64,000 bases of DNA from an uncultured bacterium (GTDB lineage: Bacteria > Patescibacteriota > Minisyncoccia > Phycocordibacterales > UBA6065), in NCBI GenBank assembly GCA_966243015.1, contig CBIMES010000002.1, forward strand, positions 48,518-112,517, written 5' to 3'. Below, one piece after another: positions 739-35,810 of this stretch. Position numbers and translations under genes: made by a program. The first letter of the stretch is position 1. Every line of letters begins with the position of its first letter. Under the pieces are notes generated by a model. The model did no database searches. It was not told the origin of the DNA and saw nothing but the letters and a program-made list of their open reading frames with translations.

Positions 739-1542
739 CTATCGATACGGAGCGCCGAAAATCATGGGGTTAAAGAGTTGGCCTGTGTACATGTATGTGC
801 CAGATCCCCCAAGACGGAACGATCCCATATTATACGACTTCAACGTCTTTGTGTATGTCGCCGAACCGACCTCCTTGCCGTCGAGATACAACGAGAAGCG
901 CTTGGCCGAGTCATTAACCGACATGGCGGCATGATGCCACTTGCCATCATTCACGTTGACGCCGCTATTGATTGAGATAGACGTGTTGTCAGTGAACCAA
1001 ATGGCACCCGTGAAAACTCCAGAATCCTTGGTCATATAAAGCCCCGAGTGATATCCAGGCCTCAGAATCATATAACCGTCGTACGTCGAACCAGGCAGGC
1101 CAGTCGCCTTGAACCACGTTGCCATAGTGTAACCATCACCAGGATCAGTAATCTGGGCCGCTCCGGGACTCGATGTGACGGGCATATCGACATAACCCGA
1201 CGTTCCGTTAAAAACGAGAGAGTACCCACTGCCCGTAGGAGTATTGCCCACCGCCGACCACGTAGCGCCAGAGGCGATGTTTCCCGTCAAACCGTTTCCC
1301 GATGCGTCAGCGATTGTTGATCCGGCCCCTTCGCTCAAACGCCAGAAACCGCCTGCGCTTGCGCCAACAGCGCGATACAGGGAGCCCTCAAACTGTGTTC
1401 CAGCTGCGATGCGTGCCTTCTCACGAGCAGCGTTAAGACTTGCGAGGACAACGCCTGAAAGCAAAGAGATGATCGAGATGACAACCAAGAGCTCAATGAG
1501 GGTGAATGCGCGGGAAAACTTTAGAAGCGACATTGTCTTCAC
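739..1542 (-). CDS. Type IV pilin-like (prepilin N-terminal) protein fused to a LamG/concanavalin-A-like domain
   Basis: N-terminus KFSRAFTLIELLVVISIISLL is a class III (prepilin) signal with cleavage/methylation motif. The C-terminal half contains a GKWHHAAMSV...LYLDGKEVG LamG-like signature. Confidence 0.75.
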   Translation of the reverse strand: MKTMSLLKFSRAFTLIELLVVISIISLLSGVVLASLNAAREKARIAAGTQFEGSLYRAVGASAGGFWRLSEGAGSTIADASGNGLTGNIASGATWSAVGNTPTGSGYSLVFNGTSGYVDMPVTSSPGAAQITDPGDGYTMATWFKATGLPGSTYDGYMILRPGYHSGLYMTKDSGVFTGAIWFTDNTSISINSGVNVNDGKWHHAAMSVNDSAKRFSLYLDGKEVGSATYTKTLKSYNMGSFRLGGSGTYMYTGQLFNPMIFGAPYR

Positions 1543-1595
1543 ATAATCTTACAAAGCAATTGCCATGTCAACGATTCTGCGCACAGGTAAAAGAA

Positions 1596-1632
1596 AAGCC
1601 GCCTCATCGATTGTGGTCGATAGGCGGCTCGG
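1596..1632 (-). terminator. GC hairpin (gccgcct...aggcggc) followed by a T-tract on the minus strand, downstream of the PEP-CTERM gene
   Basis: An inverted repeat flanked by an A-tract and a T-tract sits immediately after the stop codon of the 1641..2246 gene. Confidence 0.5.
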
Positions 1633-1640
1633 CGGGTCGC

Positions 1641-2246
1641 TCACGCATGTCCCTTTCTGCGGCGAACCGCGACAAGGAGCGCGAGGGCGACGAGGCCGGC
1701 GAACAATCCGAACGAGGCTGGCTCAGGGACAGATGCCGACGGCGCAGATTGTCCCCACGCCATATTCGGATCAAGAGACGAGGTATACCACAGACCCACC
1801 TCCTGGACCCAAAGGCCCGAAGAGAAGTAGGACGGCACATAACCATCGCCGAGAGTAAACGAATACGGGGCATCCGGAACCGGGAGATGGGCAAAATACA
1901 GCTCATCGAATTGCCCATTTTCATCAACCGATTTGAAGGCGACATACAAATCAGGCCCGTAGAATGTGGCGTCCTTGTAGAACACAAGACTCGTCGTCCC
2001 TACCATCAGACTCCCCCCGACAAACGTCGGAACAAGGGGCGTGAGCTCACCATGCTCCTGGAAACCAGGAACGGCGAGATCGAAGTCCACGATGAAGGTC
2101 CCCGAATAGTCGGTGCCGACGGCGACCATGGGAAGATTGCTCTCCGTAACCTTGCCCGAGAACGAAAACGTCACAGGAGCCGCGAGGCTCGTGGACGGAA
2201 GGGCGCCCAGGAAGAACGCCATGACAAGTGCGATGATGTGTTTCAT
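1641..2246 (-). CDS. Secreted protein with a C-terminal PEP-CTERM sorting signal
   Basis: N-terminal signal peptide MKHIIALVMAFFLGALPSTSLA. C-terminus VPEPASFGLFAGLVALALLVAVRRRKGHA has the PEP motif, a TM helix and an Arg-rich tail. Paralogue of 12194..12820. Confidence 0.75.
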   Translation of the reverse strand: MKHIIALVMAFFLGALPSTSLAAPVTFSFSGKVTESNLPMVAVGTDYSGTFIVDFDLAVPGFQEHGELTPLVPTFVGGSLMVGTTSLVFYKDATFYGPDLYVAFKSVDENGQFDELYFAHLPVPDAPYSFTLGDGYVPSYFSSGLWVQEVGLWYTSSLDPNMAWGQSAPSASVPEPASFGLFAGLVALALLVAVRRRKGHA

Positions 2247-2351
2247 CGTGCTTTCCTTTGGTTGAGGTTAGGAATCCCCTGCCGGAATGGCAAAGAGCTT
2301 CACGTCTTCTTAATACCACATGAAAGGAAAATTGTAAATAAAGAAAAGATA

Positions 2352-2404: not shown

Positions 2405-2941
2405 CTAGTTGTCCCCACGCGATCCGCCGAAGAATGACCTGAACATCCCCCAGATGCGGCCGAAGACGCCCTTTGAGCCGACGTTCGCCGAGAGTTTCGC
2501 GTCAACGGCGCGGACGCTGTCGCCGACCTCGAGGTCAGCCGATGCAACGGTGCTCGTGCCAGAGGCGGCATAGAACACGGTCGTAGACGCGGTAAGAGTA
2601 TGGGCGACGCCGTCCTCGTCAGTGACGACAACAGTGCTCGTGCCAACGGAGGCGACGGTACCGACAATCATCTTGCCGCGAGCCTTCCCCTCCCAACCCT
2701 CTCTCGGACCGTCCCTGCGACCGTTGTCAGGTCGCGACGACGTGCCCATCTCCAAACGGGAGCTCGTGGCGCGGACCTCGCCGCGGAATTCGCCCTTTAC
2801 GGACGGAACTTTGGCGTCAATGTCAGCGCGAACGTTCACGCCGACACCTGCACCAACCTGAGCAGAAACGCCTTGCGCCGCGAGAAGGCAGAGGGCGACG
2901 AGAAATACAGGAGCCGCAAGCTTCAAATGTGTTTTGTTCAT
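2405..2941 (-). CDS. Secreted hypothetical protein (Thr/Ser-rich, DUF5666-like C-terminus)
   Basis: Start placed at the internal Met MNKTHLKLAAPVFLVALCLLAAQG, which begins a signal peptide. The ORF track's upstream extension has no signal peptide or ribosome-binding site. Confidence 0.6.
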   Translation of the reverse strand: MNKTHLKLAAPVFLVALCLLAAQGVSAQVGAGVGVNVRADIDAKVPSVKGEFRGEVRATSSRLEMGTSSRPDNGRRDGPREGWEGKARGKMIVGTVASVGTSTVVVTDEDGVAHTLTASTTVFYAASGTSTVASADLEVGDSVRAVDAKLSANVGSKGVFGRIWGMFRSFFGGSRGDN

Positions 2942-3077
2942 ATGTGAGCGAGGGATTACCCATGAGCGAGTGACCCTCACTCCTTATTCTACGACACAAA
3001 TACGCCGGGCGGTGCACGAAATCAACAGTTCGTCCCGAGATTGTGCTCTCGGCCACGCTGGTTTAGTATAGCCATAC

Positions 3078-3151
3078 GCGCCCATAGCTCAGTTGGTTAG
3101 AGCACAGAGCTTATACCTCTGCGGTCCATGGTTCGAATCCATGTGGGCGCA
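3078..3151 (+). tRNA. tRNA-Ile with anticodon UAU (CCA not encoded)
   Basis: Cloverleaf: acceptor GCGCCCA/TGGGCGC, D-arm GCTC..GAGC, anticodon stem CAGAG/CTCTG with loop CTTATAC (positions 34-36 = TAT), T-arm CATGG-TTCGAAT-CCATG, discriminator A. Confidence 0.85.
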
Positions 3152-3330
3152 CACCAGACAGTCACGCCACGAAACAAAAAGACCCCGTGGTCGCACACGA
3201 GGCCTTGTAGAGGGTTACCGCAACCAAGAGAGTTATGCGTGGCACTTCTCTCTGAACATTAGTACGTTCGCCTTGGGCAAAACGCTTCACCGAAACAATA
3301 TTAGCAGAGGGAAATTTCGAACTGTCGATA

Positions 3331-5824: not shown

Positions 5825-6220
5825 GGGGATGACGGGCTTCGACACACGATTCCCTTCCCTCTGCGCGCGATAGAGCTTGAGTACCTCTGCAAACTGCTCA
5901 AACCATCAAATGCAAAATCTTCCGTTTCGCCGTATTTCGCGGCACGAGATTTCTCATTCGCTTACGCAATAGCCTAAGCGACATCGTCCTTCTGCGCGTC
6001 CGGCGCGGGAGACCGCGGTGTTATATACCCGGACTAGCTAACTCCCAGTTCCAGGGCGTCTAGCGAGACTCGCCGAAAGGCGGGATGGAAATCGGACGAG
6101 GCGCGTTTTGTCTCTTTTACAGCGCCCCGCCCTAAAGCCCTTACGGGCGAAAACTGACTACATCGCGTAGAACCATTGGGAAAGATCATGTGCACGCGCG
6201 TTCAACTCGCGCCATCTCCA
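5825..6220 (+). ncRNA. ssrA: tmRNA (ssrA), one-piece
   Basis: The 5' end GGGGATGACGGGCTTCGACA matches the tmRNA 5' consensus (GGGG.UG...GG.UUCGAC). The 3' end GCGCG-TTCAACT-CGCGC-CATCTCC-A forms a T-arm and a 7-bp acceptor stem with the 5' end, including the G3:U70 pair needed for alanylation. In-frame tag candidate ...(A)ARDFSFAYAIA-TAA at 5939-5977. Adjacent to smpB. Confidence 0.7.
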
Positions 6221-6226
6221 CAACAA

Positions 6227-12071: not shown

Positions 12072-12090
12072 GCCTCCAAGGTTCGCAAAA

Positions 12091-12127
12091 ATACAACACT
12101 CTTGCATAATGTGCAAGAGTGTTGTAT
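12091..12127 (+). terminator. Perfect 16-bp hairpin after infC (atacaacactcttgca-taatg-tgcaagagtgttgtat)
   Basis: Seen directly in the sequence. There is no long T-tract, so it may be a terminator or an RNA processing/regulatory hairpin. Confidence 0.45.
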
Positions 12128-12193
12128 TAATAAGGCAAAAGATCTTCGCCATTCCGGCCAAGACCTCTCAACCCACAAAAACGAAAGGTTTGG

Positions 12194-12820
12194 ATGAAAC
12201 GCGTAATCGCTCTTATCGTGGCGTTCGTCGCCACTGCCCTGCCCCTCATATCGGCGCAGGCATACCGCTATGACTTTTCGGGGACTATCGAGGAATCGAG
12301 CTACCCGACAAGCCTCCCGACGGGCACCTTATTCTCCGGGCACATCACCGTTGACTGGGACCTCCTCACGGAAATAACCTTCTTCAATGATGCGGCTTCG
12401 TCGATACAGGCAACCATAACCGGGGGAGATCTTACGGTCGGCGGCTACGATTACGACTTTATCGTCGCCTCCGCGGGGTTTAGCTTCCAGATATACTTCG
12501 GACCGGCTGACCCTGATCTCCGGTTTGACGGGTTCAGGGATACCGGAGACTCGGGGCTCACCCTCCCCGGTGCAACCGAGCCGTTCTCCTACGTATCGGG
12601 AGGAGAGATTCCCCAAAGCCTCGTCCTTGGCGAATTTCTCGCCGGCGGAACCCTGGTGATCGCGGCAGTAGACCAGGACACCTGGGAAAGCGCCTCGGCG
12701 ACAGGTTCGATAGCCCTCACGTCGGCAACCGCCATACCCGAGCCCTCAGCGGCGGGCGCCTTGGCAGGGATCCTGGCCGCCATGATTGCCGTAGGCGTCA
12801 GGGACAGAAGAAGGGCCTAA
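12194..12820 (+). CDS. Secreted protein with a C-terminal PEP-CTERM sorting signal (paralogue of 1641..2246)
   Basis: Signal peptide MKRVIALIVAFVATALPLISAQA. C-terminus IPEPSAAGALAGILAAMIAVGVRDRRRA. The N-terminal region aligns with the 1641..2246 protein (FSG..ES..P....G...SG.I.VD.DL). Confidence 0.75.
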   Translation: MKRVIALIVAFVATALPLISAQAYRYDFSGTIEESSYPTSLPTGTLFSGHITVDWDLLTEITFFNDAASSIQATITGGDLTVGGYDYDFIVASAGFSFQIYFGPADPDLRFDGFRDTGDSGLTLPGATEPFSYVSGGEIPQSLVLGEFLAGGTLVIAAVDQDTWESASATGSIALTSATAIPEPSAAGALAGILAAMIAVGVRDRRRA

Positions 12821-12977
12821 AACCCCCTCACACAGGGCCGCTGGAACAAAAACCGGCGGCCTTTTACTTTCATCCGGAAAAAAGCTGATGAATACTGGAC
12901 AAAAAGCCATAATCTGGTAGACTGTCCCCTAACAGCCTTCGGGCTTTTAATTTTTCCCAGAACACGGGAAGCAAGCT

Positions 12978-13593: not shown

Positions 13594-13818
13594 CTATATT
13601 CCCATCTCCCTGAGAATACGGGCTCGGTCCTCAGGGGTCGTGGTCGGACGGGCCGCCTCGAGCTCGCCCACCACGCGCTGCCTCTCAGGTGACTGAGGAA
13701 GCTTGTCCGGGGCAAACGACTCGGACGCCACCTCCACCCTCTTGGTCATGGACCAGGAATAGGCCCAGATACCTGCCGCCACAAGACCGAGAACTATAAG
13801 TATAATTACTTTCCTCAT
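13594..13818 (-). CDS. Small membrane protein (74 aa)
   Basis: N-terminal TM helix. Immediately downstream of, and co-oriented with, 13831..14772. Confidence 0.4.
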   Translation of the reverse strand: MRKVIILIVLGLVAAGIWAYSWSMTKRVEVASESFAPDKLPQSPERQRVVGELEAARPTTTPEDRARILREMGI

Positions 13819-13830
13819 GAAAGAGTCGTA

Positions 13831-14772
13831 TTACGGCTTGTAGCAGAACAGGAACGAGTGGTCGACGAGAGAACTTCCGTTTCCGCTGTAATAGACTCTT
13901 TTCTGAAGAACCCCGTTAACCGCATCACAACCCGAATCACCGTTATTTCCGGTCACAGGATTGCTATAAGGGTTGTAACCTCCGCCCCACATGCCATAAA
14001 ACTGCTGTTGCACTGGTATAGAGAGATTCGTCGTATAGCAATACCAGAGTGGGTAATCCACGTCGGTCTTTCCCGCAACCTGCTTTGCGGTATACCCCGT
14101 CGGGCAGGCCTTGGTGTTGCCCGCGAGCGGGTTGGTGTACGTTGACGAGTTGTATGTGTTTCCACTAGTCCAACCGTATCCGTACATACCACCAAATTCA
14201 GCGACCTTTGAGACGTTGGCCGAAGATCCTACACAAACCCAGACGCTGTAGTCGTAATCAGTCCTTCCGAGAACCTTATAGGGGGCATATCCCGTCGGGC
14301 AGGCCTTGGTGTTGCCCGCGAGCGGGTTGGTGTAGTTTGAAGATCCGCCACCGTACATGCCTCCGAAGTAGTACTCGATTTCGGTCGTAGGGTCCTCGCA
14401 GACAGCCTGACCATTCGCGTCAATTCCTCGAAGGAACTCGCCTGGAGGGCACGTTATGGAAGTGGAAACTGGCCACGCATCGAGGCAGACCTCGTTAAGG
14501 CATATGTCGCCCGCAATAGCGAGAGTCGACGGCATCGACGAGGAACCCACTTTCACAGGACCATCAAAGAACGCATCGAGCATTGATCGGAAGCCGTTAG
14601 TCACAAGGCCGCCCGACTTGGTCTGTGTGATCGAGCTCACGTTGATGGGCGCCGGTGCGTCACCCGCCGGAGGAGTTGACGAGGGTGCCGTCCATGCCTG
14701 AATCGAGATTGCGCTTCCCAGAAGAAGCGAGAGGCAGAACATTGCGTAGAATATCGAGCTCTTTGTTTTCAT
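13831..14772 (-). CDS. Secreted Cys-rich protein with internal repeats (YTNPLAGNTKACPTGY repeated twice)
   Basis: Signal peptide MKTKSSIFYAMFCLSLLLGSAISIQA, paired cysteines, and a 44-bp perfect direct repeat inside the CDS. Confidence 0.6.
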   Translation of the reverse strand: MKTKSSIFYAMFCLSLLLGSAISIQAWTAPSSTPPAGDAPAPINVSSITQTKSGGLVTNGFRSMLDAFFDGPVKVGSSSMPSTLAIAGDICLNEVCLDAWPVSTSITCPPGEFLRGIDANGQAVCEDPTTEIEYYFGGMYGGGSSNYTNPLAGNTKACPTGYAPYKVLGRTDYDYSVWVCVGSSANVSKVAEFGGMYGYGWTSGNTYNSSTYTNPLAGNTKACPTGYTAKQVAGKTDVDYPLWYCYTTNLSIPVQQQFYGMWGGGYNPYSNPVTGNNGDSGCDAVNGVLQKRVYYSGNGSSLVDHSFLFCYKP

Positions 14773-14821
14773 CTTTATTTCCTTAAATTTGCTTGTATCA
14801 ATAATAACACCGATCGGGATT

Positions 14822-16057
14822 CTATATCTCCTCGAATCGAGCGCTGACTGGCGACTGCTTTATCCTGTACACCTTCGTCCTCGACGGCACCCCGTCCCCT
14901 GTCGCGTTCAAGGTTACGTAATACCACGTGCAGTTGATAGGGACATTCTCCGCCGAGCATGCGTTCACGATCTTCCTGTTAACCCTGAGCTTGAAAGTGG
15001 TTACCCCGTTGTACGGAAGGGTTATCGAACCCGGCGTCTCGGTGAACCCAGAGGTTCCGAGGGCGTACTCTATCGTCGTGCTCGCCGGAAGTGCCGAGGA
15101 AAGACCTCCGAACGAGATATCAACATCGCCCGTGTATCCGCCGTAGGAAACCACGGTGATTTTCTTGGTCTCGGAATCAGAGCCCGCGTCGCCAATCGTC
15201 TGAAGCTTGATGTCCTCGGGACCTCCGATGCTGAAGCCTGGCTGCTGGATGAGGACCGTGAATGAGGCGGTCTGCGTATTTGAATAGCCCGAGCCGTTCT
15301 GGCAGCTGAACTGATACGTGTAGGAACCGTTCGTGAGAGGACCCGTCATCGCGGACGAGCTGGTCGCGATGCCCGTGACCGTGGTAAAGGCGGTTCCGCC
15401 CGAAGAGGTCTTTGAAAGCGTACATGACGTGCCCACAGGCAGGTCAGACACCGTCCAGGCAAGGGAGACGTTTGATCCGTACTCGATGTCGGTCCTATCC
15501 TTTATGCTGAGTCCGCCCAGAAGCGCGTCAAACGAGACACCGGGGAATCCCGTGGCTATCTGCACGCCGCCGACGCCGGCAAAGTTCACCCAGCCCACGA
15601 CGTCACTGCCCCACGCAAAACCGACGAGACTTGGACCAGACTGGCTTATGCCGTATCCTGTACCAGCCATGCTGATCCAGCCGTCCCAGCCATAGCCGTT
15701 CGCGGACGTCGCCTTTGCCCAACCAACGATGTCAGAGCCGACCAACTTGGCATTGACGGCCTGGGTTCCGTCACCCGTCGGGAAGCCGGAGAGGCCGCCG
15801 AACTGAATCCAGCCGATATTCGGGGACCAGGCGTATCCAGAGAGATCGCCCGTGCTCGGGTTTATATTAACGCCGTAATTAACCGGCGACGCCTGCACGC
15901 CCGCAGCAGACTCGTCATGGTCGTTCGTCGAGTTGAAACTGATCCAGCCGATATTAGAAGACCACGCAAAACCCGAGAGGTTATGCTCACTGCCCGCACT
16001 CGCAAGAAAAGGGGAGAAAAGAAGGGCGAGGGCGAAGAACAAAATACTTTTTCTCAT
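14822..16057 (-). CDS. Secreted repeat protein (GFAWSSNIGWISF-type repeats repeated four times)
   Basis: Signal peptide MRKSILFFALALLFSPFLASA. Tandem aromatic repeats ([FY]AWS.NIGWI.F), followed by a Ser/Thr/Gly-rich region. Confidence 0.6.
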   Translation of the reverse strand: MRKSILFFALALLFSPFLASAGSEHNLSGFAWSSNIGWISFNSTNDHDESAAGVQASPVNYGVNINPSTGDLSGYAWSPNIGWIQFGGLSGFPTGDGTQAVNAKLVGSDIVGWAKATSANGYGWDGWISMAGTGYGISQSGPSLVGFAWGSDVVGWVNFAGVGGVQIATGFPGVSFDALLGGLSIKDRTDIEYGSNVSLAWTVSDLPVGTSCTLSKTSSGGTAFTTVTGIATSSSAMTGPLTNGSYTYQFSCQNGSGYSNTQTASFTVLIQQPGFSIGGPEDIKLQTIGDAGSDSETKKITVVSYGGYTGDVDISFGGLSSALPASTTIEYALGTSGFTETPGSITLPYNGVTTFKLRVNRKIVNACSAENVPINCTWYYVTLNATGDGVPSRTKVYRIKQSPVSARFEEI

Positions 16058-21473: not shown

Positions 21474-21908
21474 TTAAGCGTGAACCGTACCGCCCGCCTT
21501 CTCGAATACTGCCTTTGCCGATGCTGAGATCTCTACGCCTGAGACGATGAGCTTCTTGGTGATTTCGCCGCTCGTGAGAATCTTGATTCGAGGGTAGTTT
21601 CCGTCGATCTTTGAGATGATTCCCTTTGAGGCGAGAGTCCTTGGCTCCACTCGATCCCCTGCCTTGAAGTTCTTCTCGATGGCGCTCAGGGTGACGGTTA
21701 CTGGCTTTGCCACGATTGACTTGAAGGCGTATCCGCGGAGCTTAGGGAGTCGCTTGATGAAGTCTCGGAGCTCCGGTCGCTTCTTGGCGCCGGCTCGAGA
21801 GTCCTGACCCTTCTGGCCGCGTCCCGAGGTCTTGCCGCGCTTTCCGCCTCGGCCAATCTGGGCCATCTTCATATTAGGGGTCTTTCGCTTGATGTTGTGA
21901 AGCTGCAT
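21474..21908 (-). CDS. rplO: 50S ribosomal protein L15
   Basis: GRGGKRGKTSGRGQKGQ motif. Confidence 0.9.
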   Translation of the reverse strand: MQLHNIKRKTPNMKMAQIGRGGKRGKTSGRGQKGQDSRAGAKKRPELRDFIKRLPKLRGYAFKSIVAKPVTVTLSAIEKNFKAGDRVEPRTLASKGIISKIDGNYPRIKILTSGEITKKLIVSGVEISASAKAVFEKAGGTVHA

Positions 21909-21922
21909 GGTGATTGTGTTAA

Positions 21923-22531
21923 TTACGCCTTCTTCGAAGAAGCAGGTCGAGAGAGCTTGAGGCCCTGGAGTGCCGCGATAGTGGCGCGAGCGATGTTGAG
22001 CTTGTTCTTTGAAGGAGAGACAACCTTCGCCGCAACGTTGCTGATGCCTGCGAGCTCGAGAACGGTTCGAGCGGACGAACCAGCGACGAGGCCGCGGTCC
22101 TTCACAGGTCGAATCGAGACGCGAGCCGAAGCGTACTTCTCGAATACCTCGTGAGGGATAGACATGTCCTTGGTGACGTTCACCTTGACCATGTTCTTCT
22201 TTGCGTCACGGAACGCCTTGTCGATGGCGAGAGCGGTGTCTCCGGCCTTGCCGAGACCAACGCCGACCATTCCCTTCCTGTTACCCGCAACCATGGCGAC
22301 AGAGAACGCGAAGCGTCGTCCGCCAGACACGGTTCGAGACACGCGTCGGATGTTGAGCATAGTGCTGTCGTACTCAGGCTTTGCGCGAGGGGCGCGAGAG
22401 TCAGGTCGTCGTGGACCCGGTCGGCGAGGGCCGCCCTGGAATGAGCCTCGAGGACCGCGAGGAGCGATTCCCTGAGCTGCTGCAGGTGCAGCGGTCGTAG
22501 CCTTATTCTCTGTTGTGTTTTCTGGATTCAT
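21923..22531 (-). CDS. rpsE: 30S ribosomal protein S5 (with an Ala/Pro/Arg-rich N-terminal extension)
   Basis: NIRRVSRTVSGGRRFAFSVAMVAGN...VSIRPVKDRGLVAGSSARTVLELAGI. Only 14 nt separate it from rplO, so no L30 gene is present. Confidence 0.9.
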   Translation of the reverse strand: MNPENTTENKATTAAPAAAQGIAPRGPRGSFQGGPRRPGPRRPDSRAPRAKPEYDSTMLNIRRVSRTVSGGRRFAFSVAMVAGNRKGMVGVGLGKAGDTALAIDKAFRDAKKNMVKVNVTKDMSIPHEVFEKYASARVSIRPVKDRGLVAGSSARTVLELAGISNVAAKVVSPSKNKLNIARATIAALQGLKLSRPASSKKA

Positions 22532-27158: not shown

Positions 27159-27500
27159 TTATTTCTTGTCGGTGGCAGCACCCTTGGCGGCCTGGGCAGC
27201 GGCGATCTCACCCTCCTTTTTCTTCTGCTCGAGGTCCTTCTGCATCTTACCGCCGTGCTTGTTGAACTTGCGGGTCAAAGAAAATTCGCCGAGTCGGTGG
27301 CCCACCATGTCCTCTGCCACCAGTACCTCGACGAAGTCCTTACCGTTATGAACGCCAAACTTGAAGCCCACCATCTCCGGGGAGATGACGCAGGCTCGTG
27401 ACCAAGTCTTAATAACCCCAGTCTCCTGTGGTTTCTTGCCGGCGATCTTGCTCAGAACTCGCTCGTCAACGTATGGGCCTTTTGAAAGTGATCGTGTCAT
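27159..27500 (-). CDS. rpsS: 30S ribosomal protein S19 (with a Lys/Ala-rich C-terminal tail)
   Basis: [13 protein letters not shown]...[18 protein letters not shown]. Confidence 0.9.
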
Positions 27501-27654
27501 GTATAGACGATAAATTACAGCTCGGGCGTTTGGACTATAGTCGCTAACACGACTTATTAAATGAAAAAACTAGGCTTAAACCTAGATTCCTTTACTTAGT
27601 GTCCATTCCGAAGCTAGTAAGGGCTATCCTAGCAGAAAACAAAACTAAGTCAAT

Positions 27655-27764
27655 GGGCTCGCTCTCGCCTCCCCGGAAAAGCACGCATAAAGCCCTGCTG
27701 GGCTTTTGCTCTGCTCGGCCCGGTCGGCCTGCGCAAGGCTTTTCCGGATAGGGAGAGACGAGCC
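27655..27764 (-). repeat. Structured inverted-repeat element, copy 2 (core at 27682-27738 is the reverse complement of the copy-1 core)
   Basis: Imperfect outer stem ggctcgctctcgcctccccgg / ccggatagggagagacgagcc around a core roughly 90% identical to the reverse complement of 7631-7686. Lies 150 nt upstream of rpsS on the minus strand. Confidence 0.65.
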
Positions 27765-27818
27765 TGATGCTTGAAAAATAGCGCTTTGTGAGGTATTTTC
27801 AAGGAGCAATCGATCTTT

Positions 27819-28010
27819 ATGAGTCCATCGACCCTCGAACAGGAGCTTGCGGCCCTTGGCCCGAGACCCCTGACCCAATGGGAAGACAAAATCGTGTTAC
27901 CTGACGGATCAACCAGAACATGCATATGCCACATGATTAGCGGCGTCAAAGCCCTGGCACACTGGCATTTCGCCCGACAGGAGATCCTTCAAAGACACGG
28001 CCAAGCCTGA
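27819..28010 (+). CDS. Small hypothetical protein (63 aa, contains a CICH motif)
   Basis: AAGGAG Shine-Dalgarno 12 nt upstream of the ATG; a terminator follows. No homology is assignable. Confidence 0.4.
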   Translation: MSPSTLEQELAALGPRPLTQWEDKIVLPDGSTRTCICHMISGVKALAHWHFARQEILQRHGQA

Positions 28011-28018
28011 CCCTGGCA

Positions 28019-28042
28019 GCCGCCCCTCAAGGGCGGCTTTTC
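28019..28042 (+). terminator. Terminator hairpin gccgccc-ctcaa-gggcggc followed by ttttc
   Basis: 7-bp GC stem with a T-tract after the 27819..28010 ORF. Confidence 0.55.
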
Positions 28043-28054
28043 ATGCGCGGCCAA

Positions 28055-28080
28055 GAAAAAGCCCCGTTTCTGGGGCTTTG
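28055..28080 (-). terminator. Terminator hairpin (aaagcccc / ggggcttt) for the 28094..28618 gene
   Basis: The minus strand reads aaagccccagaaacggggcttttt. Confidence 0.6.
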
Positions 28081-28093
28081 ATGGCCAAAGGGC

Positions 28094-28618
28094 CTAATTA
28101 TTAAAGACAATCTCCTGTCGGAAGGACATCAGGGGCGCCAAAGCGATCTTGCCTGAAGGCAGAACGACCTCGATTCCCTCGGAGGGCATAATGAAAATGA
28201 ACCCTCCCCTTTCATTCGAGTCCCGGTCGGCATCCGCGAGCAGCGTGAGAATCACAGCCTCGTCTTTCGATATCGAGAGGCCAAGTTCCTTGAATACGAG
28301 GAAGCTGTCCCCGTCTTTCTCGACGATGCCGTCAGGGATTGAGATTCGGGCCAGAGCCTTGCCGTCCTTATCCGCCAAGGAAAACCTCGACATGTTCTTG
28401 AGAACCTCGGGCTTTTTGTCTAGCCGGAACATGATCGAACTTACCGTCACACCCGATTCGAACGCACGAAGCGACAGACAGAACACGGGATTGGACCTTG
28501 TCCCCACGGAAATGCTGGTCCTCGACAATTCACCCTTGCGAACGGACAGATGTTCTTCAGGAAGCGCGTAACAAAAGGCTCCGAAAAAGAGCCCGATAAG
28601 GCAGAGTAGTTGTTTCAT
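28094..28618 (-). CDS. Secreted hypothetical protein (174 aa) with weak similarity to the 33175..33813 lipoprotein
   Basis: Signal peptide MKQLLCLIGLFFGAFCYA. LRAFESGV...LADKDG...IPDG segments loosely align with LRAFHSVSLVDADG... of the 33175..33813 protein. Confidence 0.55.
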   Translation of the reverse strand: MKQLLCLIGLFFGAFCYALPEEHLSVRKGELSRTSISVGTRSNPVFCLSLRAFESGVTVSSIMFRLDKKPEVLKNMSRFSLADKDGKALARISIPDGIVEKDGDSFLVFKELGLSISKDEAVILTLLADADRDSNERGGFIFIMPSEGIEVVLPSGKIALAPLMSFRQEIVFNN

Positions 28619-28715
28619 GGTGAAAGAGCGGATGTTTGCATGGTTTATAACACAAAACCGTTGCTACGGCAATTTTAGTAGCGACGGTTCCTTTATTTTA
28701 AGGCGTTTAATTGTC

Positions 28716-29132
28716 CTACCCCCTCTTTCTCCTGTAGCTCGCCTTTGACTCGCGGGTGATAGCGAGAATCGAGATGACGGCAATATACGAGGCGCTTACC
28801 TCTGGCGGCATCTTGTATTCGATATCGGTGAGGGCCTGTGCCGTGATCATGCCCATAATGAGAACCGTCCAGAGGATCGCATAGAGCTCGCCCGGGTGAA
28901 AGCCCTCGTGAACCCTGTGCCATCGACGAAACTCCTTTTCGGCACTGTAAATCGCCAAAGAGGCGCAATAGATACCCGCGATTGTCAGGATTACGTGATT
29001 CTCGTCGAGAATGTTGTGATTGAGAAAATCATAGATAATTGCAGCAAAGAAAGCGACCGTCCAGAAGTTGACCAAACCGCGCCAGAAGCCGAACTTGCCG
29101 ACCCTTTCTGACAGATTGAGGATGAATGCCAT
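28716..29132 (-). CDS. Small integral membrane protein (138 aa, 4 TM)
   Basis: Four hydrophobic helices and a basic C-terminus; no family assigned. Confidence 0.5.
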   Translation of the reverse strand: MAFILNLSERVGKFGFWRGLVNFWTVAFFAAIIYDFLNHNILDENHVILTIAGIYCASLAIYSAEKEFRRWHRVHEGFHPGELYAILWTVLIMGMITAQALTDIEYKMPPEVSASYIAVISILAITRESKASYRRKRG

Positions 29133-29162
29133 GCCTTCATGATATCACGGGCAACGAAAAAC

Positions 29163-29190
29163 CCGCCTTTCGGCGGGTTTCTCTCTTGGT
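29163..29190 (-). terminator. Rho-independent terminator directly after rplB (aaacccgcc-gaaa-ggcgggttt followed by ttttcg on the minus strand)
   Basis: 9-bp GC stem with a T-run, sitting between rplB and the inserted genes. Confidence 0.65.
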
Positions 29191-29207
29191 TGAATGAGTC
29201 GAGAAGA

Positions 29208-30059
29208 CTAGTTCTGCCCCTTTGCCTTTCCGACCTTTCGGCGGGAGACAATGAAGACGTTCGAGTACTTCTTTGGAGTTCGGGTCTTCTGGCCCTTTCC
29301 TGCTGGCTTACCCCATCGGGTCTTGAGCCTTCGGAGACCTCGTCCCTGTCGTCCTTCACCTCCACCGTATGGATGGTCTACTGGGTTCTGTGCAGTACCT
29401 CGGACGGTCGGTCGAATGCCGAGCCATCGTGATCGTCCTGCCTTACCCGAGTTGACGAGCCAGTGCTCATCGTTCGATACCTGTCCGATAGTCGCGAAGC
29501 ACTCCTCGTGCACCTTTCGTACCTCTGAAGACGGCATCTTGATCTGGGTATATCCAGCGTCGTTACCGATGATCTGGGCGAAGATTCCAGCCGCTCGGCC
29601 GATCTTTGCTCCGCCCTGAGGCTTGACCTCGATGTTGTAAACGAAGGTTCCTACAGGAATCTTCTTGAGAGGGAGCGCGTTTCCTGCCGCTACCGCTGCC
29701 GCTGCACCTGCGACGAGGGTCGTGCCGACCTTAACTCCCTTAGGGAGAAGGACGTAGCGTCGCTCGCCGTCTCGGTATGCCGCGAGTCCGATGAAGCCCG
29801 ATCGGTTTGGATCGTACTCGACAGACTTGATGGTAAATGGGATGTCTCGCTTGTCGTACGAGAAGGAGACGTCTCGGAAGAGCCTCTTGTGTCCGCCTCC
29901 CTTGTGGCGAACAGTGATGCGACCGTGGTGGTTTCGTCCTACCTTTCGGGTGCCGCCGTGAGTGAGGGCCTTAACAGGATCCTTCGAGGTGATGTACTCC
30001 TTGAAGTTAATCGTCTGCATGTGCCTTCGGCTCGGGCTCGTTGGTTTATATGTTTTCAT
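29208..30059 (-). CDS. rplB: 50S ribosomal protein L2
   Basis: 283 aa with a canonical L2 sequence (GRNHHGRITVRHKGGGHKR). Confidence 0.95.
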   Translation of the reverse strand: MKTYKPTSPSRRHMQTINFKEYITSKDPVKALTHGGTRKVGRNHHGRITVRHKGGGHKRLFRDVSFSYDKRDIPFTIKSVEYDPNRSGFIGLAAYRDGERRYVLLPKGVKVGTTLVAGAAAAVAAGNALPLKKIPVGTFVYNIEVKPQGGAKIGRAAGIFAQIIGNDAGYTQIKMPSSEVRKVHEECFATIGQVSNDEHWLVNSGKAGRSRWLGIRPTVRGTAQNPVDHPYGGGEGRQGRGLRRLKTRWGKPAGKGQKTRTPKKYSNVFIVSRRKVGKAKGQN

Positions 30060-30084
30060 GGCCTTGTTGTTAATTTATGAGGGA

Positions 30085-30546
30085 TTACGCGAACTCGATG
30101 ACATCTCCCTTCTTGAGGTAGACGTACGCCTTCTTGGCAGAAGTGGTCTTGCCGGTCCTACCGCGAGCCCACATGGTCTTTGCAGGGATCGATACGACAG
30201 ACACCTTTACCGGGGTCACCTTGTAAGTGTCCTTGATTGCCTGAGCAATCTGCTGGGCATTCGCCGATACGGCGACGTTGAAGGTGTAGACGTTGTTGTT
30301 CTCAGAGAGAATCGCGGCCTTCTCGGTAACGCGAGGACCCTTAAGCACGGCACCCTTCGATGCAACAGTGGTCTTTGCGTCGGCTTTCTTCTCGGCCTGA
30401 GCAACGGCCTTTGGAGCCTTCTCGATAGCCCTCTCCTTTGCAGGAACCTTCTTGTTGACGGCCTTCTTGAGAGGCTTGTCGGTCTTAACCTCTGCCTTTG
30501 CCTTTACCTCCTGATCCTTCTTCTCCTTTCGTGAAAATAGTGCCAT
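30085..30546 (-). CDS. rplW: 50S ribosomal protein L23 (with a Lys-rich N-terminal extension)
   Basis: C-terminal L23 domain YKVTPVKVSVVSIPAKTMW... Confidence 0.85.
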   Translation of the reverse strand: MALFSRKEKKDQEVKAKAEVKTDKPLKKAVNKKVPAKERAIEKAPKAVAQAEKKADAKTTVASKGAVLKGPRVTEKAAILSENNNVYTFNVAVSANAQQIAQAIKDTYKVTPVKVSVVSIPAKTMWARGRTGKTTSAKKAYVYLKKGDVIEFA

Positions 30547-30552
30547 AGAAGT

Positions 30553-31215
30553 TTAGTTAAGCTTAGCCTCGATAACCTTGAGAGCCTCGGCTGGGTTCTC
30601 GAAGACAACGAATTTGCTGTTAAGGAGGTCGAGGAGATTGAGGTTTCGAGCCTCGTCAACTACGACCGAGCCGATGTTCTGGAAGCTCTTCTCGGTGTTC
30701 ACGTCCTTCTTCGCGAGAGCGATGAAAGCAGCGTTCTTTCGCTTGGTAGCGAGAGTCTCGAAGCCCTTTGCCTTTGAGAGGCCAACGAGAGCCGCCTTTG
30801 CGTCCTTCGTCTTTGGAGCGTCGAATGAGAGAGAGTCGACGAAGAGAACCTCGCCGTCCTTCCACTTCTTCGAGAGAAGGGTAAGGAACGCCTTCGCCTT
30901 TACGGCCTTGTTGACCTTTCGGGCGTAGTTCTTGTCGTTTCGAGGACCGTGTGCGACACCTCCACCAACCCAGATAGGAGATCGGGTCGATCCGTGTCGC
31001 GCGCGACCGGTTCCCTTCTGCCTCCATGGCTTCTTGCCTCCTCCGCTTACCTCACCTCGGGTCTTGGTGTGAGCGATAGGCTGTCGAGCGTTCGACATCA
31101 TCGATACCATTACCTGGTGAACGAGGTCGGCGTTCCACGAGAGACCGAATGCCTCTGCCGAGAGCGCGATCTTTCCTGCCGACTTACCCTCCTTGTTGTA
31201 GATTGTTGCGTCCAT
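30553..31215 (-). CDS. rplD: 50S ribosomal protein L4
   Basis: 220 aa with an L4 sequence. Confidence 0.9.
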   Translation of the reverse strand: MDATIYNKEGKSAGKIALSAEAFGLSWNADLVHQVMVSMMSNARQPIAHTKTRGEVSGGGKKPWRQKGTGRARHGSTRSPIWVGGGVAHGPRNDKNYARKVNKAVKAKAFLTLLSKKWKDGEVLFVDSLSFDAPKTKDAKAALVGLSKAKGFETLATKRKNAAFIALAKKDVNTEKSFQNIGSVVVDEARNLNLLDLLNSKFVVFENPAEALKVIEAKLN

Positions 31216-31229
31216 ATATTTGAAATTAT

Positions 31230-31838
31230 TTATGCAACGATAGATACGAGAGTTCCCCTTCGACCAGGAAGAGAACCGTGAATAACAATCTCGTTGGTCT
31301 CAGGGCGAACCTGGAGAACCTTAAGATTCTTGACGGTGACCATGTCGCCACCCATGCGGCCGGCCATGCGCATGCCCTTGGCAACGCGTCCGCCCGCTCG
31401 TGCGCCTCCGCCGATAGAACCCGCCTCTCGCTCAGAGTGCTTCTGACCGTGGGTTCGGGAACCTCCCTTGAAGTGATGGCGCTTAACCACACCCTGGAAG
31501 CCCTTACCCTTTGACTCTGATCGCACAGAGATAACATCTCCCTCCGCAAAGGTTGAGAGATCTACCTTGTCGCCCTTCTTGAACTTAGCGGCCTCTTCTG
31601 CGGATACGCAGAACTCGCTGAGGTGAAGGAAATTGCCGAGACCCTTCTGGGCCTTGTTGATGCGAGCCTCCTTCTGCTCGCCGTAGCCTACCTGGAGGGC
31701 GTTGTAGCCGTCGGTAGACTCGGTTTTGACCTGCGTGATGACAACAGGGCCTGCCGAGAGGATAGTCGCGGGAAAAGCGCGACCGTCCGCATCGAAGACC
31801 TGAGTCATATTCTTCTTAGTGCCGAGTATGAACTTCAT
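31230..31838 (-). CDS. rplC: 50S ribosomal protein L3
   Basis: Start placed at MKFILGTKKNMTQVF, matching the MKGILG.K.GMTQ.F consensus. The ORF-track N-terminal extension is not supported. Confidence 0.9.
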   Translation of the reverse strand: MKFILGTKKNMTQVFDADGRAFPATILSAGPVVITQVKTESTDGYNALQVGYGEQKEARINKAQKGLGNFLHLSEFCVSAEEAAKFKKGDKVDLSTFAEGDVISVRSESKGKGFQGVVKRHHFKGGSRTHGQKHSEREAGSIGGGARAGGRVAKGMRMAGRMGGDMVTVKNLKVLQVRPETNEIVIHGSLPGRRGTLVSIVA

Positions 31839-31984
31839 GTTATGCGCGAGCATGGGTCTGGGGGACCCAGAGGCTCTCTTAACCAACCTATTAAATTAAA
31901 AAGAAGCCCTTGCTTCTCGTGGGCATGATACTACCTTAAAAGGTCGATTTATGCAAATTGGGCCGCCTGAAGCGCGTCCACCAA

Positions 31985-32016
31985 AGAAAAGGGCCGCTAG
32001 CGCAAGCTAGCGGCCC
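31985..32016 (-). terminator. Terminator for 32031..33020 (gggccgctagc-loop-gctagcggccc followed by a T-tract on the minus strand)
   Basis: 11-bp perfect stem. The stem sequence is nearly identical to the hairpin at 33137-33159. Confidence 0.65.
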
Positions 32017-32030
32017 GAACCCTTGGTGCG

Positions 32031-33020
32031 TTATCTGACGGGAATGCCATCCTTTAAAAGGGTGAAAAGGAAGGTCTTCTTGTAGTCGTAATGCGGAGCG
32101 AATACCGCGTCCGTGCCGACGGCCTCAAGCTTGAGCAGATAGGTCACGGTAACCCGGTATTTGGGTTCTGACGCCGTCCCGATTGATTCGACTCGCGTTG
32201 TGGGTGAGCCCAGAATCGTCGTTTCGACATTAACATTCCGAACAGCTAGGTCCTTTGACTTTACCAACCCTGCAGCCCGACCGCCATTTACCGTGGTCAC
32301 CCCCTCCCCTTGCAGGCTGGCGGATATGACCGTCGATGAGCTTTTCGCGTTACGAACATCAACCTTGACGACAAAATCGCGCTTGGAACGGGCGGGGATT
32401 TCCCAGTCCACGTCCTCAAATACGATTTCGTCATTCATCACGTCTGCCATGGCAATGAAATCATTACCCTGGTAGAGATAAGCCCTGGTTACCATCGCGG
32501 AACCGCCCGAAGTCTTAACCAGAATCCGAACATCATCGACAGTCCTCTTTTTAAGGGAAGAAAGCGTGAAGTTCAGAATCGGAACCAGGTCAACCTCATC
32601 ATCCTCTGCGCCGTAAGAGGCCACGGCAAAACTGGGACCAGTCTGCTGCGAGGCGTAAAGACAGAGATCGACGGGCACAGGCTTCTTCCAGAACTTGGAC
32701 GGAAGCCGGACGGCTGAACTGATTCGATTGACCCCAGTCGCGTGACGGCTTTCCAGAAACGGATCGGGCAGCTGCCAGGTCGGAGACCAGACAGCGCCTT
32801 CAAACGAAACCCGATAAACCTCCCTGCCGGGATTGACGACCTCATACGACACCGAGACGGGGAGCGTGATTTCATTGTTCTCCTGAAGCTTGAAATAGCC
32901 CGCAGGATAACCACCTACGACCACGCCCGAAGACGGGACGCTGTAAGAGACCTTGAGCTGGGCAAAAGCGTTCGTGACGCTGATAACAATGGCAAAGAAC
33001 AGGACGGGCAGTAGTTTCAT
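32031..33020 (-). CDS. Secreted hypothetical protein (329 aa), paralogue B of the inserted family
   Basis: Signal peptide MKLLPVLFFAIVISVTNAFA. The N-terminal domain SVPSSGVVVGGYPAGYFKLQENNEITLPV...PG aligns with residues ~325-380 of the 35862..37175 protein. Confidence 0.6.
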   Translation of the reverse strand: MKLLPVLFFAIVISVTNAFAQLKVSYSVPSSGVVVGGYPAGYFKLQENNEITLPVSVSYEVVNPGREVYRVSFEGAVWSPTWQLPDPFLESRHATGVNRISSAVRLPSKFWKKPVPVDLCLYASQQTGPSFAVASYGAEDDEVDLVPILNFTLSSLKKRTVDDVRILVKTSGGSAMVTRAYLYQGNDFIAMADVMNDEIVFEDVDWEIPARSKRDFVVKVDVRNAKSSSTVISASLQGEGVTTVNGGRAAGLVKSKDLAVRNVNVETTILGSPTTRVESIGTASEPKYRVTVTYLLKLEAVGTDAVFAPHYDYKKTFLFTLLKDGIPVR

Positions 33021-33131
33021 GTAGATATTCGGCCATCAGAGCGGAAGTGCTCTGGTGCGGCTTTCCTGTCTTTAATTATAGCATAAATCTATTAAAAGTC
33101 AATAATGACATAATCACCCCACCCGCCAAAT

Positions 33132-33159
33132 AAAAAGCCGCCAGCTTGAAGCTAGCGGC
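33132..33159 (-). terminator. Terminator for the 33175..33813 gene (gccgc[t/c]agc stem, tttttattt on the minus strand)
   Basis: Stem gccgccagc / gctagcggc with one mismatch, followed by a T-tract. Confidence 0.6.
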
Positions 33160-33174
33160 CGAGGACCACAGTCC

Positions 33175-33813
33175 TTATTTCTTGACCTTTTCGGAGATGA
33201 TAGTAACCACCTGCTTGAAGGGCAGCCCAGGGCCAGACACCTCCTTACCCTGACTGTCGATACAGACGACGCCCTCGGGACACATTTCAAAGACGTAACT
33301 GGCGCCATCGGGATTCGAGATGAAGGAATAACGCGGGCTCGCCTGGATACTGAGCCATCGCTTCGCATCCTTGGGAATCATGTATTTGAGACCCTTAAAG
33401 TCGAGCAGGAGCCTGTCCCCTTCCGTCCGGAACGACGTGTCGTCGACAGGCGTCTCGGACACGAATCGACCGTCGGCATCAACCAGCGAGACGGAGTGGA
33501 ATGCCCTGAGGAATCGCCACATGTCCTGGCCAACATCTATCCTGACGCTCGTGAGCACCATGTCCAGACCATGAGCCTCCACGCTAAACGACAACACCGG
33601 CGACGACTCGCCTTTCGGCGAAATGGCGGAACGCGCGAGCGACCCCTTCTCAACCGCAACCGACGTCGGGACCCGCAACTGGACCTCATAATCCCGCTTC
33701 GACTCGGGACGGCTCGCGCATGCGGTGAAAAACACGGACGCCGGGACAAGAAGGAGCACGAGCGAAGGAATCCCATCACACTTCCAGTGGAACTTTTTTA
33801 TAACCGATTTCAT
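33175..33813 (-). CDS. Putative lipoprotein (212 aa)
   Basis: Signal peptide with a lipobox-like LVPASVFFTAC. No assignable domain. Confidence 0.55.
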   Translation of the reverse strand: MKSVIKKFHWKCDGIPSLVLLLVPASVFFTACASRPESKRDYEVQLRVPTSVAVEKGSLARSAISPKGESSPVLSFSVEAHGLDMVLTSVRIDVGQDMWRFLRAFHSVSLVDADGRFVSETPVDDTSFRTEGDRLLLDFKGLKYMIPKDAKRWLSIQASPRYSFISNPDGASYVFEMCPEGVVCIDSQGKEVSGPGLPFKQVVTIISEKVKK

Positions 33814-33986
33814 GAGGTTCTAAACACCCAGGGCATATGCCACCCTCGACGCACCCGCGCCAAGAGCTTTGGGAATGATTCTGGAATCGAATTTGCCACA
33901 AACCAGCACAAAGTCAATTCGCGCAAGAAAAAAACCGCCTTTCGGTGGTTCTTTCTGTCTTTCGAATAAGTTCAGAGACACGAGAA

Positions 33987-34022
33987 AATAAGGACCACCG
34001 CCGAAGCGGTGGTCCTTATTTT
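33987..34022 (-). terminator. Rho-independent terminator immediately after rpsJ (12-bp stem aaggaccaccgc / gcggtggtcctt, then uuauuuuc)
   Basis: Perfect 12-bp inverted repeat abutting the rpsJ stop codon at 34023. Confidence 0.65.
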
Positions 34023-34388
34023 CTAAATCATCTTCACGTCGATGTTCACGCCTGAAGGCAATGACATGTTGGTGAGGGCCTCGATGATCTTCTGGTTAGG
34101 ATTCAAGATATCGATGAGTCGCTTGTGAACTCGCATCTCAAACTGCTCTCGCGCATTTTTGTAGACGAACGACGAGCGGTTCACCGTGTACTTCTTGATC
34201 TCCGTTGGGAGTGGCACCGGACCGAGCACCTCTACGTCGTAGCGGAGAGCGGTGTCGATGATCTGCTTTACCGACGCATCGAGAATCTTGCTCTCGTACG
34301 CTCGGACGCGGATTCGGAGTCGCGGAGTTGCGTCCGCTTTTGCCACCGCCTTCTTCTTAGTTGTTTTCTTTGTTTCTGCTACTGCCAT
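34023..34388 (-). CDS. rpsJ: 30S ribosomal protein S10 (with a Lys-rich N-terminal extension)
   Basis: LRIRVRAYESKILDASVKQIIDTA... Confidence 0.9.
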   Translation of the reverse strand: MAVAETKKTTKKKAVAKADATPRLRIRVRAYESKILDASVKQIIDTALRYDVEVLGPVPLPTEIKKYTVNRSSFVYKNAREQFEMRVHKRLIDILNPNQKIIEALTNMSLPSGVNIDVKMI

Positions 34389-34428
34389 ATAAGTGCTAGT
34401 CTACGTATTTCCTGCTTTTTAGCAAGTA

Positions 34429-35625: not shown

Positions 35626-35810
35626 AGTATTTTTGGTAAGTAATGAAGATGTACGCGCGAGATTGGCACATCCTCATGACCTACAAATTAATGTTCTAAG
35701 CTGTTAAATAATGCTTTTCCAACTGAAACCAATTGAAAAAGCGCGCAAAATGCGTACCCCGTATCATAGCAAAGTGAGAGAGGAAGTCAAACATTACCCT
35801 TCCCGACGAC

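Follow-up and report, generated by a model that had tools for sequence, protein, structure and literature searches.

The two genes and their products

Two paralogous genes, here called gene 1 and gene 2, lie in a 64-kb stretch of DNA from an uncultured bacterium (hereafter the window, which covers about 48.5-112.5 kb of a 237-kb contig). They encode small secreted proteins whose C-termini look like the PEP-CTERM sorting signal, that is, a Pro-Glu-Pro (PEP) motif, a hydrophobic helix and a cluster of Arg residues. The first-pass annotation had described both C-termini in this way and had considered the N-terminal domains to be homologous to each other, and both statements hold. The tails that it quoted agree exactly with the translations of the open reading frames (ORFs), in which protein 1 ends in ...SVPEPASFGLFAGLVALALLVAVRRRKGHA and protein 2 in ...AIPEPSAAGALAGILAAMIAVGVRDRRRA, each directly before the stop codon, and the two proteins are 29% identical over their full length (BLASTP, E = 5e-12). 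Both ORFs are present in full, and their features are as follows.

1641 to 2246, minus strand: gene 1, encoding a 201-amino acid secreted protein with a PEP-CTERM-type tail
2181 to 2246, minus strand: signal peptide of gene 1, MKHIIALVMAFFLGALPSTSLA / AP, recognized by inspection (basic n-region, hydrophobic core, cleavage site between SLA and A)
1644 to 1730, minus strand: tail of gene 1, recognized from the sequence and hidden Markov models (HMMs): VPEPAS, helix FGLFAGLVALALLVAV, RRRK
12194 to 12820, plus strand: gene 2, encoding a 208-amino acid paralogue with a PEP-CTERM-type tail
12194 to 12262, plus strand: signal peptide of gene 2, MKRVIALIVAFVATALPLISAQA / YR, recognized by inspection (MK and hydrophobic core, cleavage site between AQA and Y)
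12734 to 12817, plus strand: tail of gene 2, recognized from the sequence and HMMs: IPEPSA, helix AGALAGILAAMIAVGV, RDRRRA

Each protein is composed of a Sec-type signal peptide, a β-rich ectodomain that carries the N-terminal motif known from small PEP-CTERM proteins, and a tail of the form [VI]PEP[AS]-helix-RRR. In each tail, [VI]PEP is followed by about 20 hydrophobic or small residues and then by the Arg cluster, at most 1-3 residues from the stop codon (within three for RRRK of protein 1 and within one for RDRRR of protein 2). The hydrophobic windows of the tails are at residues 172-190 and 180-198, the tail helix occupies residues 176-199 in the AlphaFold model, and the signal peptide region of gene 1 is likewise modelled as a helix (residues 2-18). 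A six-frame regular-expression scan found no further combination of PEP, helix and basic tail in the window, and among its real genes only these two encode a protein having a signal peptide together with a C-terminal helix and a basic tail.

The host is, as judged from its SecY and ribosomal protein genes, a Parcubacteria/Patescibacteria bacterium belonging to the candidate phyla radiation (CPR). SecY of the window is 83% identical to that of a 'Candidatus Parcubacteria' metagenome-assembled genome (MAG), 60-69% identical to those of Campbell-, Zambryskii- and Adlerbacteria-type MAGs and about 43% identical to those of Proteobacteria. In addition, rpsE (S5) is directly followed by rplO (L15) at 21908-21923 without an rpmD (L30) gene, which is typical of CPR. 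The window contains four type IV pilin genes, PilB and ComEC but no biosynthetic clusters, and the earlier description of the genome as pilin-rich and reduced is supported. CPR bacteria are not known to have an outer membrane. Sortases and LPXTG signals are common among them.

Remote homologues and probable membership of the PEP-CTERM class

A profile made from the two paralogues and their orthologue was searched exhaustively with HMMER against 1.84 billion representative proteins. Only the two clusters of the window proteins were found below E = 1e-30, and 44 matches had E < 1e-3. The full-length matches, of about 200-240 amino acids, have throughout a signal peptide, an N-terminal motif, a variable middle and a VPEPS...RRR tail, the N-terminal motif common to them being [VI]TYxFSGxV...P.G..FSGxFxxD. 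In an alignment of 21 sequences (A2, three CPR proteins and 18 outgroup matches), TIGR02595 is matched by 12 sequences at E < 0.01, and 13-14 sequences have matches to named PEP-CTERM families. The PEP tripeptide is invariant in all 21 sequences, in both paralogues, in the orthologue (P0002) and in a further CPR relative (P0007). For two of the remote relatives, which come from Acidobacteriota, the NCBI annotation is PEP-CTERM protein; one relative sits in a proteobacterial-type metabolic context, and most are metagenomic singletons. The two top matches of the profile, giant proteins of 6,400 and 1,897 amino acids, were set aside as repeat or compositional matches and are probably spurious; the 1,897-amino acid protein, the sole one of the two that was scanned, is a DUF11/Cna-B repeat protein.

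Moreover, a tail-only HMM constructed from the 18 outgroup PEP-CTERM proteins gave 27.5 bits (E = 4.8e-7) for protein 1, 18.9 bits (E = 2.3e-4) for protein 2 and 31.6 bits for the orthologue, the next best of 4,742 other ORFs in 524 kb of CPR DNA being 8.7 bits, though this test is not fully independent because the outgroup set was chosen with a profile that contained the CPR tails. Against the curated models, whose cut-offs are 16 bits (TIGR02595) and 20.7 bits (PF07589), the four CPR sequences scored as follows.

Protein 1: TIGR02595, 16.5 bits; PF07589, 19.8 bits
Protein 2: TIGR02595, not listed; PF07589, 14.4 bits
Orthologue P0002: TIGR02595, 16.3 bits; PF07589, 20.3 bits
CPR relative P0007: TIGR02595, 19.5 bits; PF07589, 19.3 bits

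The cut-off of TIGR02595, the model that the first-pass annotation had named for checking its assignment, is thus passed by three of the four sequences (protein 1, P0002 and P0007), and of the two window proteins the first passes and the second fails.

On the strength of this homology, both proteins probably belong to the PEP-CTERM class by descent, as divergent members in a phylum where they were not expected. Such domains are already known, and three of the four CPR sequences would be called PEP-CTERM proteins by NCBI's own annotation pipeline. The novelty lies in the setting, namely a small, conserved family of Patescibacteria, located beside pilus and surface genes and not beside exopolysaccharide (EPS) loci, with no processing enzyme in view. 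Of the earlier proposal that these proteins are PEP-CTERM/exosortase substrates, the class assignment is supported, barely by the curated HMMs and with the help of remote homology, and the status as substrates is not established, since no such enzyme turned up in the approximately 81 kb read (the window with 8.4 kb of left and 8.6 kb of right flank).

Other C-terminal sorting signals were tried and rejected. The proteins are not LPXTG/sortase substrates, there being no LPXTG-like motif in either tail and a score of 12.8 bits to TIGR01167 against its cut-off of 15.9; an LPXTG-type tail is absent from the whole window, where the sole regular-expression match is an unrelated secreted protein (35862-37175) without helix or basic tail. 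Nor are they MYXO-CTERM/myxosortase substrates, for which an invariant Cys is required: neither tail has a Cys, and TIGR03901 gives 16.9 bits against 20. The Heimdall-CTERM model is also below its own cut-off (14.9 against 24 bits), and no archaeosortase or PGF-CTERM model is among the matches listed for these proteins. Membership of the PepA (NF033554) and NF038129 families was rejected as well, because protein 1 scores 16.4 and 14.1 bits against cut-offs of 80 and 65, respectively, and protein 2 scores 11.1 bits to NF038129. The proteins are nevertheless like the floc-associated PepA, NF038129 and FxDxF PEP-CTERM families in size (about 200-260 amino acids) and layout. Sub-threshold matches to these models are given by 13-14 of the 21 aligned sequences, and residues 84-198 of protein 1 align to PepA (E = 0.006), the similarity being mostly in the C-terminal third and amounting to 16 bits against 80.

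Selection on the tail

The regions of the protein are conserved to different degrees, both between the paralogues and between gene 1 and its orthologue, for which the ratio of nonsynonymous to synonymous substitution rates (dN/dS) is given.

Signal peptide: paralogue identity 52%, orthologue identity 91%, dN/dS 0.63 (with a dS of merely 0.06)
N-terminal motif: paralogue identity 40%, orthologue identity 74%, dN/dS 0.19
Middle: paralogue identity 15%, orthologue identity 54%, dN/dS 0.34
Tail: paralogue identity 39%, orthologue identity 75%, dN/dS 0.16

The overall dN/dS of gene 1 and its orthologue is 0.33, and dS of the pair is about 1.1-1.2 in the tail and the middle. The residues of VPEPAS are unchanged in the orthologue, with synonymous changes in five of the six codons and no replacement. 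Across the four CPR sequences, which include a lineage whose PilB is just 59% identical to that of the window, the tail has 10 invariant positions out of about 27 (P-E-P, G, A-G, A, V-R and R), compared with 13% invariance overall. By these sequence comparisons, no other part of the protein is as well conserved across CPR lineages as the tail. Because this residue-specific conservation follows the PEP-CTERM consensus and goes beyond the needs of a generic anchor, it is suggestive of a membrane-embedded partner that reads the tail.

Transcription units and a shared upstream motif

Each gene is a single-gene unit that has its own promoter-like site and its own terminator-like hairpin, and the relevant features are the following.

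2247 to 2338, minus strand: promoter and 5' untranslated region (5'UTR) of gene 1, with TTTACA (2333-2338), 17 nt and TGgTATTAA (2310-2318)
2281 to 2295, minus strand: 15-nt 5'UTR motif CTTTGCCATTCCGGC of gene 1
2251 to 2259, minus strand: Shine-Dalgarno sequence AAAGGAAAG of gene 1
1589 to 1628, minus strand: terminator-like hairpin and T-run after gene 1, GCCGCCT...AGGCGGC TTTTCTTTT, read from the sequence
12082 to 12130, plus strand: promoter-like region of gene 2, TTCGCA-17-CATAAT, with TGTTGTATTAA at 12120-12130
12096 to 12122, plus strand: perfect palindrome with 11-bp arms in the promoter region of gene 2, ACACTCTTGCA-TAATG-TGCAAGAGTGT
12144 to 12158, plus strand: 15-nt 5'UTR motif CTTCGCCATTCCGGC of gene 2
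12834 to 12863, plus strand: terminator-like hairpin after gene 2 (11-bp stem with 8 GC pairs, then a T-run)

The 5'UTR of gene 1 is about 60 nt long. Ahead of gene 1, a strong terminator (2385-2355) stands at the end of the gene at 2405-2980 (minus strand), and the hairpin behind gene 1 is followed by the promoter-like site of a pilin gene (1571-1543). The palindrome of gene 2, which is absent from the otherwise related region upstream of gene 1, may be an operator or an insertion scar.

The two 5'UTRs have CTTYGCCATTCCGGC in common, the 15-mer being CTT[TC]GCCATTCCGGC. Within the window, the exact 15-nt motif occurs upstream of the two PEP genes only (0.34 occurrences expected at two or fewer mismatches), and among 98 fetched loci it occurs only upstream of copies or orthologues of the PEP gene, apart from one stray match in locus L074. 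Furthermore, the upstream 110 nt or so and the first 90 or so coding nucleotides of gene 1 are about 95% identical to the orthologue locus (window 2150-2350, minus strand, versus L011 4680-4877); the signal-peptide codons have the low dS given above, and the rest of gene 1 is near saturation at synonymous sites (dS about 1.2). This conserved block of about 200 nt, from promoter to signal peptide, points to nucleotide-level constraint or to recent gene conversion. An RNA element in the shared 5'UTR was considered and rejected, since the fold z-scores are -1.6, -1.8 and +0.7 and there is no Rfam match there. According to Haft et al. (2006), a PEP-CTERM gene is typically an operon of its own, and such genes have an upstream motif in common. 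The layout here is analogous, but the motif differs and is not the proteobacterial sigma-54 site.

Distribution and gene neighbourhood

Close relatives are extremely rare, although the family is not confined to one lineage. No relatives were found in the GTDB representative genomes (profile A1), in the JGI metagenomes (alignments A1 and A5), or in an IMG/VR scan and a phage tblastn search, and because of the latter two results there is no sign of phage carriage. A plasmid tblastn search with a PEP-CTERM relative gave no further relatives, and a chimeric query for the paralogues and flanking genes matched only giant multi-LamG proteins. The relevant neighbours in the window are the following.

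739 to 1542, minus strand: type IV pilin with a LamG domain, immediately downstream of gene 1 (Pfam N_methyl and Laminin_G_3)
13594 to 16057, minus strand: three clustered genes for secreted proteins of 74, 313 and 411 amino acids, none with a family match, about 0.8 kb from gene 2

The sole orthologue, P0002, is 64% identical to protein 1 and keeps the synteny FtsH - PEP gene - LamG pilin - RecG, so that the adjacency of gene 1 and the LamG pilin is preserved in the sister species (L011/L012; Logan SRR33465453/52). P0007, the best small remote match, is 32% identical to protein 2 and is encoded on a CPR-type contig of 9.2 kb with 44% GC (L099). The order on this contig is homologues of the 411-amino acid (41% identical) and 313-amino acid (N-terminal) proteins of the window, then P0007, PilB (the one 59% identical to that of the window), PilC and two pilins. 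In the window, the genes of the 411-amino acid (14822-16057) and 313-amino acid (13831-14772) proteins are about 1 kb from gene 2; neither protein has an NCBIfam match, and the sole Pfam match is a weak, sub-threshold one of the 411-amino acid protein to DUF5979. Because of the contig context of P0007, the family is present in at least two well-separated CPR-type lineages with a recurring surface/pilus neighbourhood, and a single recent transfer does not account for it. That type IV pilus and other surface genes adjoin it repeatedly suggests a role in the cell-surface contact or adhesion of a presumably epibiotic cell.

Several observations concern the neighbouring genes themselves. The 411-amino acid protein (14822-16057, minus strand) has repeated GWAWSxNIGWISF-type motifs. 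It also ends, like its L099 homologues (2-1258 and 1281-2555), in a similar C-terminal motif (..ARFEEI, ..PSYEER and ..PSFQEI), which is possibly a further conserved signal at the C-terminus. The gene at 2405-2980 (minus strand), located between ftsH and gene 1, encodes a secreted protein of about 178-191 amino acids without a family match, and the sister species (L011) lacks it at that position.

Only 14-23 bp separate infC from the rpmI-rplT genes behind it in six related Paceibacteria; gene 2 is therefore a 0.9-kb insertion into the infC-rpmI-rplT operon. The str/S10 ribosomal-protein superoperon (27500-40314, minus strand) is broken up as well, by a pilin gene and by unannotated genes for secreted or membrane proteins, and these interruptions are the same habit as the insertion of gene 2. 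The gaps are 2137 bp between S10 and L3 (two genes), 1708 bp between L2 and S19 (two genes), 1730 bp between EF-G and EF-Tu (a 437-amino acid secreted protein) and 815 bp between S7 and EF-G (a pilin). Most related CPR loci have 7-220 bp at S10-L3 and L2-S19, and among closer relatives four have 0.7-1.6 kb at L2-S19 and one has about 1 kb at S10-L3.

Two RNA genes of the window may also be recorded. One is a tRNA-Ile with the anticodon UAU (3078-3152, plus strand; ARAGORN; Rfam tRNA, 72.6 bits). In bacteria, AUA is normally read through a lysidine-modified CAU anticodon, and UAU is unusual. The other is a tmRNA (5825-6221, plus strand; Rfam, 83.5 bits) with the tag peptide AKSSVSPYFAARDFSFAYAIA, which adjoins smpB.

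A proposed sorting enzyme and alternative explanations

It is established that these are real, expressed-looking and selected genes for secreted, C-terminally anchored surface proteins. That a dedicated sorting enzyme processes both of them is about as likely as not, and it is the most likely of the explanations weighed here. If one does, the proteins would be exported by Sec and their signal peptides removed; the C-terminal helix would then anchor each protein transiently in the cytoplasmic membrane, leaving the Arg cluster on the inner side, and PEP would be placed at the outer face, where an exosortase-superfamily transpeptidase, encoded outside the 81 kb read, would cut it and transfer the ectodomain to an acceptor on the surface. 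As long as no cut is made, the product would be a type I membrane-anchored surface protein. Such a process would be comparable to that of archaeosortase A in single-membrane archaea, where the PGF-CTERM tail is reportedly removed and the protein stays on the surface. ArtA cleaves PGF-CTERM (10.1101/2023.06.07.544157). This pair is thus a precedent for an exosortase-superfamily enzyme in a one-membrane cell, although the motif is PGF there and PEP here. The LPXTG/sortase pathway in Gram-positives follows the same logic of motif, helix and basic tail, also in a monoderm cell, but with a motif that has no counterpart here.

Compared with the PEP-CTERM/exosortase system proper, the two proteins share the signal peptide, a diverse small ectodomain, the near-invariant PEP, the helix, the C-terminal basic cluster and single-gene units with an upstream motif. 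They are unlike it in that the CPR host is presumed to lack an outer membrane, only two copies are seen, the upstream motif is not of the sigma-54 type, and their genes lie among type IV pilus genes and surface genes without annotation. In the pDV locus, exosortase, EpsI, PrsK, glycosyltransferases and polysaccharide export genes are found near the PEP-CTERM genes, and none of these is present in the 81 kb here.

Exosortases (EpsH/Xrt) have eight transmembrane helices and carry CxG, NxxR and HxxxG motifs. The polytopic membrane ORFs of the window are all otherwise assigned (SecY, ComEC, YibE/F, PspC, ZIP, DUF417, DUF2238 and an M50 protease), and there is no sortase gene in the window. As the first-pass annotation had noted, the window has no exosortase gene, and neither Pfam annotation nor phmmer with XrtA revealed one there or in the flanks of about 17 kb. 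The query was a bona fide XrtA from the Nitratidesulfovibrio vulgaris plasmid pDV (NC_005863), chosen following Haft 2006, and with phmmer --max no six-frame ORF of the window, the flanks or 25 related CPR loci matched it below E = 2.

This absence is one of several points that weigh against processing by an exosortase-type enzyme. The 81 kb contain neither glycosyltransferase nor EPS genes, nor outer-membrane genes, and hold only two PEP-CTERM copies, whereas the median is eight copies in a count restricted to genomes with more than two, those with two or fewer being treated as possibly degenerate or false positive (Haft 2006). Every PEP-CTERM organism in that study had an outer membrane, which CPR bacteria are not known to have, and EPS genes were correlated with the system; no report linking exosortase or PEP-CTERM to CPR/Patescibacteria was found in the searchable literature. 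As to the scores, protein 2 is below both curated cut-offs and none of the four CPR sequences reaches that of PF07589. Finally, the conservation of the tail is inflated, because constraint on a small-residue helix and on a positive-inside cluster is to be expected of any membrane anchor.

Several of these points also speak for a different explanation, which is possible but less probable: the lineage has no exosortase, and the tails are orphans that serve only as C-terminal membrane anchors, giving type I surface proteins in a cell with one membrane, where PEP and the GxxAGxxA residues would be retained for helix capping, helix packing or dimerization. The lack of an exosortase in the 81 kb, the two copies, the borderline or failing HMM scores, the small genome without EPS genes in view and the lack of any CPR exosortase in the searchable literature all agree with it, and a precedent exists in Chlorobium tepidum, which has two PEP-CTERM proteins and no EpsH (Haft 2006). 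However, orphan tails do not easily account for the invariance of PEP and ten tail positions across CPR lineages while the ectodomains fell to 15-30% identity, for PEP codons that changed only synonymously, or for a conservation closer to the PEP-CTERM consensus than a generic anchor needs.

Membership of the class has itself been weighed against convergence, according to which these would be ordinary tail-anchored CPR surface proteins with a PEP tripeptide unrelated to PEP-CTERM. The domain is short, its scores are at or just under threshold, and the generic part, helix plus basic residues, also weakly matches the MYXO-CTERM, LPXTG and Heimdall-CTERM models. This is nevertheless improbable, for the homology is not limited to the tail (it includes the N-terminal motif, and proteins of about 200-240 amino acids with clear PEP-CTERM tails are matched over their full length), and the tail HMM made from outgroups only sets three CPR proteins at least 10 bits above the 4,742 other CPR ORFs.

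An artefact of assembly or binning, by which genes of a diderm bacterium would have been joined to CPR sequence, was considered only because PEP-CTERM is typical of diderms; no support for it was found, and it is effectively refuted, since contamination or misassembly is very unlikely where CPR housekeeping genes flank both genes inside the 237-kb contig, identical junctions and gene order were independently assembled in the ENA assemblies ERZ27393189, ERZ27394141, ERZ27393942 and several Logan runs, protein 1 is identical on 16 contigs from several assemblies, the G + C contents at third codon positions (GC3) of the two genes (0.66 and 0.70) match that of the housekeeping genes (0.71), and the sister species has the same synteny.

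Significance

PEP-CTERM/exosortase sorting has been defined so far by a strict link to outer membranes and exopolysaccharide loci. If the processing of these proteins by a dedicated enzyme is true, a PEP-CTERM-type system would be extended to a single-membrane phylum with minimal genomes; alternatively, the tail would be shown to persist for a long time without its enzyme. It is a rather speculative and, on balance, unlikely extension that some Patescibacteria run their own PEP-CTERM-type sorting pathway, tied to type IV pilus and surface clusters and not to EPS loci, with an enzyme that would be either a highly divergent, so far unrecognized relative of exosortase and archaeosortase or a different enzyme altogether. 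On this reading, a diderm host might offer an exosortase-dependent matrix to which the epibiont attaches, or into which it is woven, by way of these proteins. This small family, with its shared regulatory motif and conserved neighbourhood, offers a handle on how surface proteins are displayed beside pili in ultra-small epibionts.

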